Source: a virus
Virus genome (UHGV): UHGV-0168673
Reading direction: 5' to 3' (one strand)
Length of the DNA stretch: 60,032 bases
Made by a program: the position numbers and the translations under genes. Shown here one piece after another: positions 1 through 60,032 of this stretch (its first letter is position 1; each line of letters opens with the position of its first letter). The notes beneath the pieces were generated by a model. It saw nothing but the letters and a program-made list of their open reading frames with translations. It ran no database searches and was not told where the DNA came from.

Positions 1-49
1 ACGAGATCGCTCAGTGTCTCGTGGGCTCGGAGATGTGTATAAGAGACAG
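1..49. other. Illumina Nextera adapter / i7 index-primer sequence (library artefact, not phage DNA)
   Basis: ACGAGAT + 8-nt index-like CGCTCAGT + GTCTCGTGGGCTCGG + AGATGTGTATAAGAGACAG (Tn5 mosaic end); exact reverse complement of 59984..60032. Confidence 0.9.
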
Positions 50-670
50 GAGGTAAAGAGATTTCATTAGCTCACGCTTCCAATATGTCTCATGCTCAAT
101 AGCATCTTCAATAACGTCTTCGTCTGCATTAATTTCTTTTTGGTATTCGATATCAGCTTTAGCGTTTTCCCAATAACGAGTTTTAATCAGAACATCATCA
201 TAATAACGTCCAATGGATTCAGCACGTTTCATAATAGCTTCATCTAATACAATTTCATCAAATACCTTCGATGGATCAGTATAAAGATTTCGCATGATAT
301 GAGTATATGAACGACTGTGAATAGTTTCACTAAAAGTCCATGTAGCAACCCATGTATCAAGACTTGGGTCTGAAATTAATGACATAAGTACAGCAGATGG
401 CGCGCGACCCTGAATGCTATCTAAAAGTGATTGATACTTCAGGTTATTAGTAAAAATATCTTGCTGATACTGAGGAAGCTTATTAAACTGTGCAGCATCC
501 ATCATCAAGTTTACTTCTTCAGGACGCCAGAAAAATGATAATTGCTTTTCGGTTAAATCTTCAAAAACTTTATGACGTTGAATATCATAACGCGCAATAC
601 CAAGACCTGAACCAAAAAACATAGGTTCTTTTAAAACATCAACTGGATTTGTATTAAAAACTGTGCTCAT
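50..670 (-). CDS. nrdB: Ribonucleotide reductase class Ia small subunit NrdB, N-terminal ~207 codons only; gene runs off the contig into adapter
   Basis: Track ORF 11..670; MSTVFNTNPVDVL..FFWRPEEV..FSETIHSRSY matches T4 NrdB as recalled; the last ~13 codons of the track ORF are adapter-derived. Confidence 0.85.
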
Positions 671-721
671 AAATTTTCCGCTTAGTTAATAGTTGGTGAC
701 TCGTCCGTGAGTCAAATTATA

Positions 722-2986
722 TCATAATTTACAGGATGAACAATCTTCAGCTTTTGGAGTTTCTATTTCATAATCATCAGTACCAGAACCATCGCGGGTA
801 TTATGATAATAGAAATTTTTTCCGCCAAAATACCAAAAATACAAAAGGTCATCAATCATTATTGACATTGGAACCTTGCCTTTAGGGAAGATTTGGGGGT
901 CATAGTATGTATTCGCCGAAGCTGATTGACAAACCCATTTCAGCATAATAGCTACCTGTGTAAGATAAGGTTTATTACCTTTCTTAGCTAATTTCCACGT
1001 ATAATCATAGAGGTCTATGTTATGCTCAATATTGGGCACGACTTGATTAAAGGAACCCTCTTTTGATTCTTTAACAGAGACTGGTCCACGTGGAGGCTCG
1101 ATACCGTTTGTACTGTTAGAAACTTGGGAAGATGACTCACATGGCATAAGTGCTGATAATGTGCTATTACGGATGCCAAAGAGCTTAAGGTCTTCCCGCA
1201 GCGACGACCAGTCACAAACGTATTTTGGAGCTGCGATTTGGTCAATCTTTTTATTGTACCAGTCGATAGGTAATTCGCCTCGAGACCAACGAGTGTCTGA
1301 ATAATATTCGCAAGGTCCTTTTTCTTTGGCGAGCTTGATGGATGCTTTAATGAGTCCATACTGCAATCTCTCAAATAGTTCATGTGTTAAATCGTTAGCG
1401 TCTTCATAAGAAGCAAAATTACTTGCCAGCCAAGCTGCATAGTTAGTAACACCTACGCCAAGGTTTCGACGCTTTTTAGCTTTTTCTGCTTCAGGAACTG
1501 GATATCCTTGGTAATCCAAAAGATTATCAAGAGCACGAACTTGGACTTCTGCTAATTCATTAATTTTATCTTGGTCTTGCCAATCGAAGTTATCTAACAC
1601 AAATGCAGATAACGTGCACAATCCAATTTCAGCATCAGGACTATTCACATCATTTGTTGGAATAGCAATTTCACAGCACAAGTTACTCTGACGAATAGGT
1701 GCCTTTTCACGAATAAACGGAGTATAGTTATTCGTATTATCAATGAACTGTACATAAATCCTTGCTGTTCCTGAGCGTTCAGTCATGAGCAATTCAAATA
1801 GTTCACGGGCTTTAATACGCTTTTTACGAATATTAGGGTCTTTTTCTGCTGCTTCGTATAATTCACGGAAACGGTCTTGGTCTTTAAAATAAGAATAATA
1901 AAGCTCGCCACCCATTTCATGCGGACTGAACAAAGTAATGTAATCGTTCTTTCCGAATCGTTCCATCATCAAATCATTCAGCTGAACACCATAATCCATA
2001 TGACGAATGCGGTTTTCTTCTACGCCTTTGTTATTTTTCAAAACGAGAAGATTTTCAACTTCCAAATGCCAAATAGGATAATAAGCAGTAGCAGCGCCGC
2101 CACGAATTCCACCCTGTGAACATGATTTAACTGCAGTCTGAAAATGTTTCCAAAAAGGAATAACACCAGTATGGCGTACTTCACCCATGCCAATCTTAGA
2201 ACCTTCGGCACGAATCATACCAACGTTAATACCAATTCCAGCGCGTTTAGAGATATATTCAACAATTGAAGCGGAAGCCTTATTGATAGACTTTAATGAA
2301 TCACCTGCCTCAATAACAACGCATGAACTAAACTGTCGAGTCGGAGTACGACAACCAGCCATAATAGGAGTTGGCAATGAAATCTGTCGAGTAGATACCG
2401 CTTCATAAAAACGGATAACATGTTTTAATCTATCAACAGGTTCATCTTGATGCAGTGCCATTCCAATAGTCATAAATGCAAACTGTGGAGTTTCATAAAT
2501 TTGACCAGTGGTTTTATCTTTAACTAAATATTTTTCTTTTAATTGCATCGCCCCGGAATAAGTAAATTCCATATCCCGCTCGTGCTTAATTTTTGATTCT
2601 AAAAATGTAATTTCTTCTGCTGAATATTTTGACAATAATTCAGGGTCATATTTACCTGCATTTACACAATAAGAAATATGGTCAATAAATGAACGTGGTT
2701 CATACTGCCCATAAACATGCTTACGAAGAGCGAACATTAAACAGCGAGCGGCTACATATTGGTAATCAGGCTCTTCAACTGAAATAGAATTTGCAGCAGC
2801 CTTAATGACAATAGTCTGAATATCATCAGTTGTCATTCCATCACGGAGATAAGATTTAATATTTTCATATAATTCATAAGGATCTACTGATGTTCCCTCA
2901 GCTGCCCAAGATAAAACTTTAATAATTTTTTGTGGGTCAAAGCTCTGAGAAACACCACTACTTTTGATAACATTAATTAATTGCAT
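722..2986 (-). CDS. nrdA: Aerobic ribonucleotide reductase large subunit NrdA
   Basis: 754-aa ORF, same length as T4 NrdA; N-terminus [21 protein letters not shown] and catalytic-region motifs as recalled for T4. Confidence 0.95.
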   Translation of the reverse strand: MQLINVIKSSGVSQSFDPQKIIKVLSWAAEGTSVDPYELYENIKSYLRDGMTTDDIQTIVIKAAANSISVEEPDYQYVAARCLMFALRKHVYGQYEPRSFIDHISYCVNAGKYDPELLSKYSAEEITFLESKIKHERDMEFTYSGAMQLKEKYLVKDKTTGQIYETPQFAFMTIGMALHQDEPVDRLKHVIRFYEAVSTRQISLPTPIMAGCRTPTRQFSSCVVIEAGDSLKSINKASASIVEYISKRAGIGINVGMIRAEGSKIGMGEVRHTGVIPFWKHFQTAVKSCSQGGIRGGAATAYYPIWHLEVENLLVLKNNKGVEENRIRHMDYGVQLNDLMMERFGKNDYITLFSPHEMGGELYYSYFKDQDRFRELYEAAEKDPNIRKKRIKARELFELLMTERSGTARIYVQFIDNTNNYTPFIREKAPIRQSNLCCEIAIPTNDVNSPDAEIGLCTLSAFVLDNFDWQDQDKINELAEVQVRALDNLLDYQGYPVPEAEKAKKRRNLGVGVTNYAAWLASNFASYEDANDLTHELFERLQYGLIKASIKLAKEKGPCEYYSDTRWSRGELPIDWYNKKIDQIAAPKYVCDWSSLREDLKLFGIRNSTLSALMPCESSSQVSNSTNGIEPPRGPVSVKESKEGSFNQVVPNIEHNIDLYDYTWKLAKKGNKPYLTQVAIMLKWVCQSASANTYYDPQIFPKGKVPMSIMIDDLLYFWYFGGKNFYYHNTRDGSGTDDYEIETPKAEDCSSCKL

Positions 2987-3520: not shown

Positions 3521-4377
3521 ATTGCCATTTTCCCTTTAATTGCTGGATGCGATTCATAATTTTCAAGGATAAAATCTTTCGGTTTCATGTATTCAGTTAA
3601 CCAGTAAAGCTGTGTTTCGGTGTCACAATTTCCAAACTCTATAGGCCAATCAATTTTAAGTTCACACAGTTCTTTAGGCTCACGACGTAAAATTTCTTTA
3701 CATTGTGCAGTATGATTCATATAGATGTGAGTATTACCACCAGAAAATATCAAATCTCCTGGGATAAGATTACACATCTTAGCCACAATATGCGTCAAGG
3801 CAGCGTACGAGGCAATGTTGAATGGCAAGCCCAAGAAAACATCTACACTTCTTTGGTACCATTGTAAATCAAGATAACCATTACGCACATTAAACTGATA
3901 GAACATATGACAGGGCGGTAATGCCATTTGATTGATTTCAGCTGGATTCCATGCTGAAACGATTTGACGTCGATCAGTTGGTAATTTTTTAATACGATCA
4001 ATAGTTTCAACTAATTGATCCACACCGCCGAAATCACGCCATTGTTTACCGTATATAGGACCAAGTTCACCACTATGATATCCTAGGTCTTTAGCCTGGT
4101 TTTCATAGTTATCGTCCCAAATAGTTTTACCTTGAATAAGACTGCCATGAGTGCGAAGACGTAAATCATTAACATTGGTAGAACCGGAAATAAACCATAG
4201 AAGCTCAGCAATGCATGCATTCCAGGCGAGCTTTTTAGTTGTTACTGCAGGAAAACCTTTGGTTAAATCCCAACGCAATTTAGTACCGAACAAAGCAATT
4301 GTTCCTGTGCCTGTTCGGTCATCGGTTTCATAACCATTTTCAAAAATGTCTTTAATTAAATCTTGGTATTGTTTCAT
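3517..4377 (-). CDS. td: Thymidylate synthase, uninterrupted (no intron)
   Basis: 286-aa continuous ORF; [26 protein letters not shown] and PPCH active-site region match T4 Td. Confidence 0.95.
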
Positions 4378-20019: not shown

Positions 20020-20676
20020 ATGGCAGCACCTAGAATATCATTTTCGCCCTCTGATATTCTATTTGGTGTTCTAGATCGCTTGTTCAAAGATAACGCTACC
20101 GGGAAAGTTCTTGCTTCCCGGGTAGCTGTCGTAATTCTTTTATTTATGATGGCGATTGTTTGGTATAGGGGAGATAGTTTCTTTGAGTACTATAAGCAAT
20201 CAAAGTATGAAACATACAGTGAAATTATTGAAAAGGAAAGAAATGCACGCTTTGAATCTGTCGCCCTGGAACAACTCCAGATAGTTCATATATCATCTGA
20301 GGCAGACTTTAGCGCGGTGTATTCTTTCCGCCCTAAAAACTTAAACTATTTTGTTGATATTATAGCATACGAAGGAAGATTACCTTCAACAATAACTGAA
20401 AAATCACTTGGAGGATATCCTGTTGATAAAACTATGGATGAATATACAGTTCATTTAAATGGACGTCATTATTATTCTGACTCAAAATTTGCTTTTTTAC
20501 CAACTAAAAAGCCTACTCCCGAAATAAACTACATGTACAGTTGTCCATATTTTAATTTGGATAATATCTATGCTGGAACGATAACCATGTACTGGTATAG
20601 AAATGATCATATAAGTAATGACCGCCTTGAATCAATATGTGCTCAGGCGGCCAGAATATTAGGAAGGGCTAAATAA
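20020..20676 (+). CDS. t: Holin T
   Basis: 218-aa ORF MAAPRISFSPSDILFGVLDRLFKDNATGKVL..; one TM segment; matches T4 T. Confidence 0.95.
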   Translation: MAAPRISFSPSDILFGVLDRLFKDNATGKVLASRVAVVILLFMMAIVWYRGDSFFEYYKQSKYETYSEIIEKERNARFESVALEQLQIVHISSEADFSAVYSFRPKNLNYFVDIIAYEGRLPSTITEKSLGGYPVDKTMDEYTVHLNGRHYYSDSKFAFLPTKKPTPEINYMYSCPYFNLDNIYAGTITMYWYRNDHISNDRLESICAQAARILGRAK

Positions 20677-35099: not shown

Positions 35100-35591
35100 T
35101 TATGCATAGCGAGCTTTGCTGTAGTGTTTAATCCAACTTTCAGGAATGACTTTGTATGTTCCTAAAAATACCGCGTTGTACAGCTTAACACCGTCTTCTA
35201 CCCACTGATCGGTAATGTATGCGCACATAGCACGAGTACGGTTAACAACCCCTTCCTCACCTTCAGTAAATTCAAACTCATAAGGAGCAACGAACTTAAT
35301 AGCCTGACCGAGTTTCCACTTAAAGTCTACACCTACATGCGAAGTATCAATCGTTTCAATTCCTTTAGCAGGAACAGCTTTCAAAAACGCAGATTCAAGA
35401 AATTTCGCACGAACATAGCCAAACTGAGTTTTAGACTTTCCATCTTTAGGAATGATACGCACTTTTACTTCAGAATCTTCATCTTTAACACCGTGTTTAA
35501 GCTGAATGCTTACAACTTCGACCAATTTTCCTGCTGCTTTAGAACGGGATTTATCAGATACACGAGCAATTTCACCGATATTAATAATCAT
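35100..35591 (-). CDS. Hypothetical protein, 163 aa (position and size of T4 MotB); shares a C-terminal domain with the next ORF
   Basis: Track ORF; C-terminal ..ITDQWVEDGVKLYNAVFLGTYKVIPESWI. Confidence 0.5.
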   Translation of the reverse strand: MIINIGEIARVSDKSRSKAAGKLVEVVSIQLKHGVKDEDSEVKVRIIPKDGKSKTQFGYVRAKFLESAFLKAVPAKGIETIDTSHVGVDFKWKLGQAIKFVAPYEFEFTEGEEGVVNRTRAMCAYITDQWVEDGVKLYNAVFLGTYKVIPESWIKHYSKARYA

Positions 35592-35635
35592 AGTTATCTC
35601 TCACTTGTTAAAAAGATTTTATACTCCACGGGACC

Positions 35636-35665
35636 ATTATACTCTGGTCCCAAGAGTTTGTAAAC
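35636..35665 (-). promoter_or_regulatory. Early promoter (-35 GTTTAC / -10 TATAAT)
   Basis: GTTTACaaactcttgggaccagagTATAAT on minus strand; -10 sits between a 7-bp inverted repeat GGGACCA/TGGTCCC. Confidence 0.55.
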
Positions 35666-36168
35666 TAGCTTACACGAACATTAATCACTGCGCTACGAGG
35701 AACTACAGAGTATTCTCCAGCATGAACTACGTTCAGAAGTTCAACGCCATCTTCAATCCACTGGTCAGTTACCCAACCACCGACCGGATTCGCGAATGGA
35801 CGACGAATGTAAACCGCCTTACACAACAAATCAGTCGGGTCTTCAATTTTTTCAACTGGTGCCACATACATAGAAACTAAATCCATATCAATATGGAATT
35901 TTTCCTGTTCTTCTTTTTCAATTTCTGTCAATAGACTAAAATCTTTTTCATAAATAATAAGCGATGACACCATTCCATAATAGTTTCTAATTTCAATATA
36001 CATCATGCCGATAAGAATTCCGCTATTAACACTAATAACAGTAAAAGGATATCCGCCAGTTAAAGCAAGAAGTTCACAAAACTTATTATGAGATGTATTA
36101 GACAGTACCGGAAAATTCTTAATTTCATCAAATTTTTTCAATTGATAAACAGCATTATTTTTAATCAT
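35665..36168 (-). CDS. Hypothetical protein, paralogous C-terminal domain to ORF 35100..35591
   Basis: 167-aa track ORF; ..VTDQWIEDGVELLNVVHAGEYSVVPRSAV. Confidence 0.5.
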   Translation of the reverse strand: MIKNNAVYQLKKFDEIKNFPVLSNTSHNKFCELLALTGGYPFTVISVNSGILIGMMYIEIRNYYGMVSSLIIYEKDFSLLTEIEKEEQEKFHIDMDLVSMYVAPVEKIEDPTDLLCKAVYIRRPFANPVGGWVTDQWIEDGVELLNVVHAGEYSVVPRSAVINVRVS

Positions 36169-44101: not shown

Positions 44102-44338
44102 CTATTTCTGTAGGTGTAAACATTGCAGCATTGCAGCATTCTTAGTTTTCCAAGTTGCTGCATCGGAAACTACATCAGAATAAGCTGCTTTTTCTGACGG
44201 AAAGATTTGATAATGAGAATCTGCAATACGGTGTTCATTTGAATATACATCAAATGCTACAGAAACTTCCATACCTTTAACTTCTTTGCCTTCACCTGCT
44301 GGATGAGTAAAGGTCTTGATGTTAACGAAACCACCCAT
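44102..44338 (-). CDS. soc: Small outer capsid protein Soc
   Basis: 78-aa ORF ..FVNIKTF..VSVAF..YQIFPSEKAAYS.. resembles T4 Soc; late promoter upstream. Confidence 0.8.
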   Translation of the reverse strand: MGGFVNIKTFTHPAGEGKEVKGMEVSVAFDVYSNEHRIADSHYQIFPSEKAAYSDVVSDAATWKTKNAAMLQCLHLQK

Positions 44339-44369
44339 AATAAACTCCTTTATTGTTTAATTACAGGTG

Positions 44370-44377
44370 TATTTATA
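44370..44377 (-). promoter_or_regulatory. Late promoter TATAAATA for soc
   Basis: Exact TATAAATA on minus strand ~31 nt upstream of the soc ATG. Confidence 0.7.
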
Positions 44378-44551
44378 TCAGTCTTCAATGAAAACTTGTG
44401 CCAGGAATTCGTGTTCATCTTGAATTTGTTTATATAAAGCCATTACAGCATTTATATTAGAGCTATCTACTTTAAGTTGATAAGCATACCACTCGTGTAA
44501 ATTAATTAAAGCTTTTTGACGTCTAATAAATTCTTCTTTGGATATTTTCAT
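44375..44551 (-). CDS. Small hypothetical protein (58 aa), not in ORF track
   Basis: MKISKEEFIRRQKALINLHEWYAYQLKVDSSNINAVMALYKQIQDEHEFLAQVFIED; ATG overlaps upstream stop; would overlap the soc late promoter, so uncertain. Confidence 0.35.
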
Positions 44552-57185: not shown

Positions 57186-57554
57186 TTAATTACCAATCGT
57201 ATATTTAGGAACGAGTTTCCATTCATGTTTTTGTTTAAAAGAAATAACTCGGAAGTTATTAGTTAAATCTTTCATAAAAGTTCTTTGACCAGGAACGATT
57301 TCAATCAGTCCCCAATCTTCTAACAGCCATGCAATCGAATCACGACGAACTTCATCTTCTTCTGTCATTTCAACTTGCCGGCCATCCATACGAAGCATTT
57401 CTTTAAAATGAACGATATAGTATAGTCCTTTTTTCTGAAGAATATGACAGGACTGATACAGAACTTTATCTTTATTATTAGCAATTCCCATACGAGTCAA
57501 AGTTTCTTTTACTTTCAGAAAATCTTCAGGTTTTTTAAGAGTAATTTCAATCAT
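57186..57554 (-). CDS. regA: Translational repressor RegA
   Basis: 122-aa ORF MIEITLKKPEDFLKVKETLTRMGIANNKDKVLYQSCHILQKKG.. matches T4 RegA. Confidence 0.9.
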   Translation of the reverse strand: MIEITLKKPEDFLKVKETLTRMGIANNKDKVLYQSCHILQKKGLYYIVHFKEMLRMDGRQVEMTEEDEVRRDSIAWLLEDWGLIEIVPGQRTFMKDLTNNFRVISFKQKHEWKLVPKYTIGN

Positions 57555-59131: not shown

Positions 59132-59818
59132 TTAAAAATCGTGGGTAGAATCAGCTTCAAGAGCTACTACATAATTCGCATGTTCACCTTCAAATTTAGC
59201 AGCACCTTGTTTACCTTTTGCCCAGAGCAGAAGTTTATAATTTCCTGGTTGCATTTTCATATTTGCCATATTGATAATGAAATTAAATGTATTTTCACCA
59301 TCATAATCACCAAGAGTCAAAGAATATTTAACACGAGTCAAAGCAGAATCTTCTACTTTATTAAAACCGTTAATTACGATTTTACCTTCTTTTACCGTGA
59401 TAGCAATTGTATCAATTTGCAGACCACGAGATACACGCAACAGTTGTTGAAGGTCTTCAGCTTTAATTTCAGTAACAACAGATGCTACCGGGAATGGAAT
59501 TGGTTTATTAGGAGCAACTACTGTACTCGGATCGGCTGCTGGCCAAAAAATTGTTGAACGAGCATCAGCAATTTTAATATTTCCATCTTCTGACTGGGAA
59601 ATTTCTGCATCATCATTAACTAGAGACAGAATACCAAGAAAACCGTTCAAATCGTAAATCGCTACATCAAAATCAATAGTGTCAGAAATATTTGCTTCTG
59701 CATAAGTTGTACCATTAACTGCGCGAGTCATAATAAATTGACCTGATTTAAGCATAATGCCAGAGTTAATAGTAGCGAAATTTTTCAAAATATTCAGTGT
59801 GTCTTTAGATAATTTCAT
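59132..59818 (-). CDS. 45: Sliding clamp gp45
   Basis: 228-aa ORF MKLSKDTLNILKNFATINSGIMLKSGQFIMTRAVNGT.. matches T4 gp45. Confidence 0.95.
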   Translation of the reverse strand: MKLSKDTLNILKNFATINSGIMLKSGQFIMTRAVNGTTYAEANISDTIDFDVAIYDLNGFLGILSLVNDDAEISQSEDGNIKIADARSTIFWPAADPSTVVAPNKPIPFPVASVVTEIKAEDLQQLLRVSRGLQIDTIAITVKEGKIVINGFNKVEDSALTRVKYSLTLGDYDGENTFNFIINMANMKMQPGNYKLLLWAKGKQGAAKFEGEHANYVVALEADSTHDF

Positions 59819-59983
59819 TTCAATTTCCTATTTACATAATAGTTAGACCAGGACCGTACAGCACCCTGATAAGATTCGTCGTTAAACCCATTAGCTACTG
59901 CAATTTTACGAAATTTATTATAACTTGGTTTTCCGTAAGCATGCCATAAAGATTTTAATTCATCTTCATGTTCAATCCAAGTT
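59815..59983 (-). CDS. rpbA: RpbA (RNA polymerase-binding protein), C-terminal fragment; 5' end lost at contig/adapter junction
   Basis: Track ORF 59815..60012; first 10 residues MGSEMCIRDR are translated adapter; remainder ..TWIEHEDELKSLWHAYGKPSYNKF.. lies where T4 rpbA sits upstream of gene 45. Confidence 0.55.
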
Positions 59984-60032
59984 CTGTCTCTTATACACAT
60001 CTCCGAGCCCACGAGACACTGAGCGATCTCGT
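59984..60032. other. Illumina Nextera adapter / i7 index-primer sequence (library artefact)
   Basis: CTGTCTCTTATACACATCT + CCGAGCCCACGAGAC + index-like ACTGAGCG + ATCTCGT; reverse complement of 1..49. Confidence 0.9.

Follow-up and report, generated by a model that had tools for sequence, protein, structure and literature searches.

The window analysed here is a virus contig of 60,032 nt (UHGV virus genome UHGV-0168673), and the 49 nt at each of its two ends are almost certainly untrimmed adapter from the i7 side of an Illumina Nextera (Tn5 tagmentation) library, built by the assembler into both ends of a contig with low coverage. The observations behind this assignment are the identity, position and orientation of the adapter, the finding of the same sequence on contigs unrelated to this one, the fact that genomes of relatives run on beyond either junction, and the SPAdes-style, low-coverage provenance of the contig. 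Since one adapter stands at both ends, facing outward each time, the contig has a 49-bp terminal inverted repeat that is artificial.

Positions 1–49 and 59984–60032 are exact reverse complements of each other (49 of 49 positions), both by direct reading and by a repeat finder applied to the whole window, as the earlier note on this DNA had stated. The sequence of the left end is ACGAGATCGCTCAGTGTCTCGTGGGCTCGGAGATGTGTATAAGAGACAG, and the right end reads CTGTCTCTTATACACATCT-CCGAGCCCACGAGAC-ACTGAGCG-ATCTCGT on the plus strand. This terminal pair is the sole perfect inverted repeat in the window (the runner-up is 38 nt at 76%), and, at the base composition of the window, a perfect inverted repeat of 49 nt at the termini would arise by chance with a probability of ~1.6e-28. 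Both ends have a G+C content of 53%, compared with 35% for the interior. The 34-mer GTCTCGTGGGCTCGGAGATGTGTATAAGAGACAG occurs exactly at 16–49 (+) and 59984–60017 (−), with 0 occurrences expected from shuffles, and the 19-nt mosaic end AGATGTGTATAAGAGACAG within it occurs exactly at 31–49 (+) and 59984–60002 (−). Elsewhere in the window the mosaic end is absent even with up to 3 mismatches allowed, and there is no sign of internal chimeric joins. The i5-side adapter, TCGTCGGCAGCGTC plus mosaic end, was also sought in the window and is absent. Base 59984 (C) coincides with the phage base expected at that position.

Features of the window, with the evidence or a description for each
Feature	Position	Strand	Basis or description
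Left adapter	1..49	+	published oligonucleotides and sibling contigs
P7 3' tail ACGAGAT	1-7	+	last 7 of the 24 Illumina P7 bases
Nextera i7 index N724, CGCTCAGT, primer form	8-15	+	published index tables
Read-2/i7 primer stub, GTCTCGTGGGCTCGG	16-30	+	Tn5ME-B / N724 primer
Tn5 mosaic end, AGATGTGTATAAGAGACAG, adjoining the insert	31-49	+	Tn5ME-B
Genuine phage DNA	50..59983	.	collinear with GiZh
Right adapter, exact reverse complement of 1-49	59984..60032	-	sequence comparison
Chimeric nrdB ORF, 219 aa	11..670	-	nrdB 5' part in codons 1-207 (670..50); full length 392 codons in Kha5h
Chimeric right-hand ORF	59815..60012	-	GTG start in adapter; first 10 codons adapter
Departure from GiZh	18290-19250		gene 37 tail fibre, distal part (gp37 tip), ~78% identity
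Departure from GiZh	35204-35914		motB region, ~80% identity
Departure from GiZh	44332-44546		short unaligned stretch near soc
Departure from GiZh	57186-57189		220-bp ORF43.1 segment between gene 43 and regA missing

The composition of the 49-mer corresponds to published reagents. The Tn5ME-B oligonucleotide for the Illumina system consists of GTCTCGTGGGCTCGG followed by AGATGTGTATAAGAGACAG, and Tn5MErev is CTGTCTCTTATACACATCT (Picelli et al. 2014, PMC4248319). The i7 primer N724 is given as CAAGCAGAAGACGGCATACGAGAT-CGCTCAGT-GTCTCGTGGGCTCGG in two independent papers (PMC7492085, PMC8225968), and the Nextera XT v2 index table lists N724 as CGCTCAGT in the primer and as ACTGAGCG in the sample sheet (PMC7589761). 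The make-up proposed earlier, namely P7 tail, 8-nt index, GTCTCGTGGGCTCGG and Tn5 mosaic end, agrees with all of these sources. Primer N724 contributes its last 30 nt as positions 1–30, and the mosaic end follows at 31–49. Likeness to the Nextera i7 N724 adapter extends over all 49 positions at both ends, with the mosaic end beside the insert and in the orientation of forward-read read-through; the difference is that the window retains 7 of the 24 P7 bases, whereas sibling contigs retain up to 24. In the Nextera layout, a forward read (Read 1) running off a short insert enters the i7 side, mosaic end first.

The identical 49-mer was found by an exact-match scan of IMG/VR at 13 ends of 12 other contigs, all from dataset 3300045988. 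The 40-nt flanks of these 13 sibling ends are all different, ranging from AT-rich to GC-rich, and the contigs are unrelated. Four of the sibling ends run 4–19 nt further out (GCAT, ACGGCAT, CAGAAGACGGCAT and TTCAAGCAGAAGACGGCAT), these being the rest of P7, and it is because sibling contigs extend outward to TTCAAGCAGAAGACGGCAT that the 7-nt tail in the window can be assigned to P7. The 34-mer, which is free of the index, occurs in at least 120 IMG/VR stretches, and the counts that follow for this 34-mer are among the matches listed. Among these, the generic adapter lies within 42 nt of the locus end in 135 of 136 occurrences, and 28 kinds of 8-mer precede the 34-mer, including all 24 N7xx indexes of the published table (PMC7589761). 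Where the i7 adapter is present on both ends, both ends carry the same index (L021, L077, L120, L122 and the window); whole IMG/VR contigs with the same i7 adapter and index at both ends also include UViG_3300045988_106567. Contigs of this kind, bearing one index at two ends, pass a 20-bp inverted terminal repeat (ITR) test for a "closed genome". In other IMG/VR contigs an i7 end is paired with an i5 end.

The sole occurrence far from a locus end among the 136 matches listed is at 3701–3734 of L027 (IMGVR_UViG_3300010234_000504, 190,684 bp), where the 8 nt ahead of the adapter are GGAATCTA, which is not a catalogue index; a chimeric join could account for this internal copy, as could a partial adapter within a large contig. 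Dataset 3300045988 is the source of every one of the 12 contigs that bear the N724 49-mer and, among the matches listed, of most of the generic adapter matches, with many indexes. It has the look of a pool of many Nextera libraries that had not been trimmed.

Deposited phage genomes carry the sequence as well. A blastn search with the 49-mer against GenBank phage records returned 80 records from at least 10 host genera, including Escherichia, Listeria, Salmonella, Streptococcus, Acinetobacter, Enterococcus and Bacillus. The Tequatrovirus records MK373781.1 / NC_054922.1 and MK327946.1 share the Nextera i7 architecture (poly-T, full P7, 8-nt index, GTCTCGTGGGCTCGG and mosaic end) but differ from the window in the internal position of the adapter, which results from the joining or rotation of permuted contigs. 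In the "complete" genome MK373781.1 / RefSeq NC_054922.1 the adapter lies at ~146,170–146,360, between rnh and gene 34, and in the "complete" genome MK327946.1 it lies at ~76,640–76,759 and breaks the gp5 baseplate hub/lysozyme gene into two CDS.

The 59.9 kb between the adapters are an internal arc from the genome of a T4-like phage (Tequatrovirus), starting at nrdB codon 207. Its genes run in the order nrdB, nrdA, td, frd, 32, 59, 33, rnh, 34–38, t, asiA, motA, 52, followed by rIIB, rIIA, 39, dexA, dda, modA/B, 56, 61, 41, uvsX, and then by 42, 43, regA, 62, 44, 45 and a homing-endonuclease-like gene. By local blastn, window 50–59984 corresponds to positions 20478–81195 of phage GiZh (KT184311, 166,514 bp) in 7 same-strand collinear blocks, an aligned arc of 61 kb without rearrangement that makes up 36% of the GiZh genome, which is 2.8 times longer. 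Unaligned gaps relative to GiZh come to <1 kb in total, and two blocks (481 and 465 nt) have an identity of only ~78–80%; departures from collinearity are limited to the four intervals given in the table. In megablast searches with the ends and three chunks of the window, hundreds of Tequatrovirus genomes matched at 95–99% identity. The best relative differs by end, being Kha5h at the left and GiZh at the right. No Rfam family was detected in the whole window at gathering thresholds, and the td region of the window is therefore intron-free, unlike that of T4. ARAGORN detected no tRNA genes in the whole window; the T4 tRNA cluster lies outside the arc of the genome covered here.

At both junctions the relatives run on, in accord with the earlier view that the ends are not phage termini. 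Among ~700–1100 matching phage records in megablast, none has an alignment extending outward of position 46 at the left end or of 59984 at the right, the overlap of a few bases into the adapter being due to chance identities. To the left of the junction, Kha5h and T4 carry nrdB codon 208 onward (in Kha5h the gene strand continues ...CTGTTTGCAT...), and the window holds 207 of the 392 codons. To the right, GiZh continues into the rest of a 295-codon ORF, rpbA, 45.2 and 46. Eight full-length contigs (164–170 kb) that encode an identical gp45 run on across the junctions likewise.

The two terminal ORFs are chimeras of phage and adapter. The coordinates given for them earlier, and the counts of adapter codons (13 C-terminal in the nrdB ORF and 10 N-terminal in the right-hand ORF), proved correct. 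NrdB residues 1–207 match PF00268 (E = 5.7e-20), and codons 208–219 are adapter-encoded LSLIHISEPTRH, closed by a TGA inside the index, for 13 codons in all. In the right-hand ORF the adapter supplies nine whole codons and two thirds of the tenth. The claim that both terminal ORFs are contaminated by adapter holds, but the label rpbA for the right-hand ORF does not. Positions 59982..59818 encode residues 241–295 (the C-terminus, 55 codons) of a 295-aa homing-endonuclease-like protein, and these 55 phage-encoded residues are 100% identical by tblastn to amino acids 241–295 of the 295-aa ORF of GiZh. The family matched is phrog_655, "homing endonuclease", with E = 4.3e-33 for the full protein and E = 4.8e-9 for the fragment in the window; no Pfam domain scored above threshold in the 295-aa protein. 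GiZh RpbA matches phrog_1285, which the right-hand fragment does not match, and a tblastn search with GiZh RpbA against the whole window gave no match, meaning that rpbA is absent from the window. An identity of the right-hand ORF as RpbA (PF10789 / phrog_1285) is ruled out by the phrog_655 match together with the lack of a tblastn match to RpbA.

In full genomes the 295-codon ORF sits between gene 45 and rpbA, with rpbA upstream of it. The gene (2483–3370 in L002) overlaps both of its neighbours by 4 nt and is unannotated in GiZh. Its distribution is sporadic: the 165-nt fragment is found in 25 phage records, compared with 669 that match the gene 44–45 region, and among the eight full-length contigs with identical gp45 the gene is present in six and absent from two.

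An exact-protein look-up with the translation of the chimeric ORF 11..670 returned two ENA assemblies, ERZ653772 and ERZ654398, in which this 219-aa product is among the called genes. The window is contig NODE_20_length_60032_cov_7.147773 of ERZ653772, with identity throughout the first 3670 bases; this is a SPAdes-style contig with a k-mer coverage of ~7. The match in ERZ654398 is NODE_3460_length_1385_cov_3.4 (1385 nt; L141), which has the N724 adapter on both ends and hence an artificial inverted repeat of its own. It has the junction at window 50 in common with the window and is identical to window 50–1340, and it enters the N724 adapter at 1340, where the window goes on into nrdA. The adapter at 1340 shows an arbitrary Tn5 cut site that was read straight through in another assembly of the same phage. 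The two assemblies evidently share a library or sample.

These observations can be accommodated by the following sequence of events. Tn5 loaded with mosaic-end oligonucleotides would have cut the phage DNA at 49|50 and 59983|59984 and joined adapters to it, and index PCR with primer N724 would then have put on the index and P7. Where the insert did not fill the length of the read, the forward read would have passed into the mosaic end, CCGAGCCCACGAGAC, ACTGAGCG and ATCTCGT, and such reads would have been left untrimmed. The assembler would have run into adapter where the genuine phage path ended, perhaps owing to the k-mer coverage of ~7 and possibly to strain polymorphism at mobile elements. 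The adapter stop codon closes the cut nrdB ORF, and the adapter GTG opens the right-hand ORF. We infer both that short-insert read-through was the source of the adapter and why the assembly stopped at the two sites.

One variant of this explanation accepts the artefact and ascribes the breaks to co-occurring T4-like strains that differ in mobile elements, with adapter as the only unbranched extension of the path. We regard it as possible but rather unlikely. In T4 nrdB, a group I intron (with I-TevIII) is inserted ~55 nt from the place of the left junction, the exon flanks near that insertion site differ between T4 and Kha5h, the right junction falls inside the homing-endonuclease-like gene with its presence/absence pattern (25 versus 669 records), and the closest relative changes from Kha5h at the left end to GiZh at the right. 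However, neither junction falls exactly on an insertion boundary, a k-mer coverage of 7 is sufficient alone, and the adapter junction at 1340 lies in plain nrdA coding sequence, so that a polymorphic site is not needed. As far as visible, the nrdB intron itself is absent both from Kha5h and from the lineage of the window.

A natural Tn5/IS50-type transposon, or another element bounded by 19-bp terminal inverted repeats recognised by a transposase, is an exceedingly improbable source of the ends. Each arm does carry, as its inner 19 nt, a Tn5 transposase binding site that is functional, the two being in inverted arrangement, and these sites resemble the natural ends in length, in 16 of the 19 outside-end bases and in being bound by the same transposase family. 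However, the natural IS50 outside end is CTGACTCTTATACACAAGT (PMC11574922), from which the 19-mer of the window differs at 3 of 19 positions, and these substitutions are those of the engineered mosaic end, a synthetic and hyperactive in-vitro substitute for the wild-type IS50 ends (PMC4248319). Outside the 19-mer, moreover, the window has Illumina primer flanks, namely Illumina-specific sequence, a catalogue index and P7, and unrelated contigs are capped by the same ends. The window ends are probably not the wild-type IS50 inside end either. The window also differs from a natural element in having neither a transposase gene nor antibiotic-resistance cargo: 60 kb of collinear T4-type genes lie between the ends, and gaps of <1 kb leave no space for a transposase gene. 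The synthetic mosaic end and the collinear T4-type DNA bear out the earlier statement that this is not a transposon.

Equally far-fetched is the reading of the repeats as true ITRs of a linear genome of ~60 kb, like those of protein-primed phages, since the perfect 49-bp inverted repeat at both contig ends, which passes the CheckV criterion of an ITR of at least 20 bp (PMC8116208), stands on a contig that is 36% of a Tequatrovirus genome, with nrdB cut at codon 207 of 392 and the 295-codon gene at codon 241, while eight full-length contigs of 164–170 kb and GenBank genomes cross both sites and a second contig (NODE_3460) has the same adapter at window 1340. In contrast to the ITRs of linear phage genomes, the repeat in the window is exogenous, and the contig is a fragment of a circularly permuted genome. 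Headful packaging leaves T4-type genomes with circular permutation and terminal redundancy, their terminal repeats being direct rather than inverted. Because of this circular permutation and direct terminal redundancy, no defined ends are expected.

Within the adapter explanation, two details of the ends stand out. Exactly 49 nt of adapter remain at either end of the window, as they do at 9 of the 13 N724-bearing sibling ends; elsewhere, among the matches listed, the retained length is 34–76 nt, with a soft peak at 47–49 and another at 76. This constant length is explained by no trimming rule or k-mer size that we can name, and could be due to a trimming rule, the read length or the structure of the assembly graph. 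A de Bruijn hub vertex with k = 49 was considered as its cause and rejected, because the contig name is SPAdes-style and retained lengths on other contigs spread over 34–76 nt. The default k values of SPAdes are 21, 33 and 55. The second detail is the presence of i7 at both ends rather than of i7 and i5, which would be a coincidence of about 1-in-2 or else an effect of reverse-read processing.

For sequence catalogues the consequences are practical. The artificial 49-bp repeat passes the 20-bp ITR completeness rule of CheckV though the contig is 36% of the genome (PMC8116208), a protein fusing NrdB to adapter is already in public gene calls (the two ENA assemblies), and the right-hand gene invites a wrong name. 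Contamination of this kind is common across IMG/VR and extends to GenBank and RefSeq phage genomes. According to the CheckV paper, 33% of the ITR contigs in IMG/VR are >90% complete, and adapters go unmentioned there (PMC8116208); adapter-made ITRs could contribute to the poor CheckV agreement for ITR contigs. A literature search on CheckV and adapter contamination found no published report of adapter-derived ITRs in the library covered. We are evenly divided on whether such ITRs amount to a systematic, unflagged error in public virus catalogues. The 49 bases themselves have no biological meaning and say nothing on phage ends, packaging or transposition. Their importance lies in quality control: the usable sequence of this phage is 50–59983, and nrdB and the homing-endonuclease-like gene are truncated at its edges.
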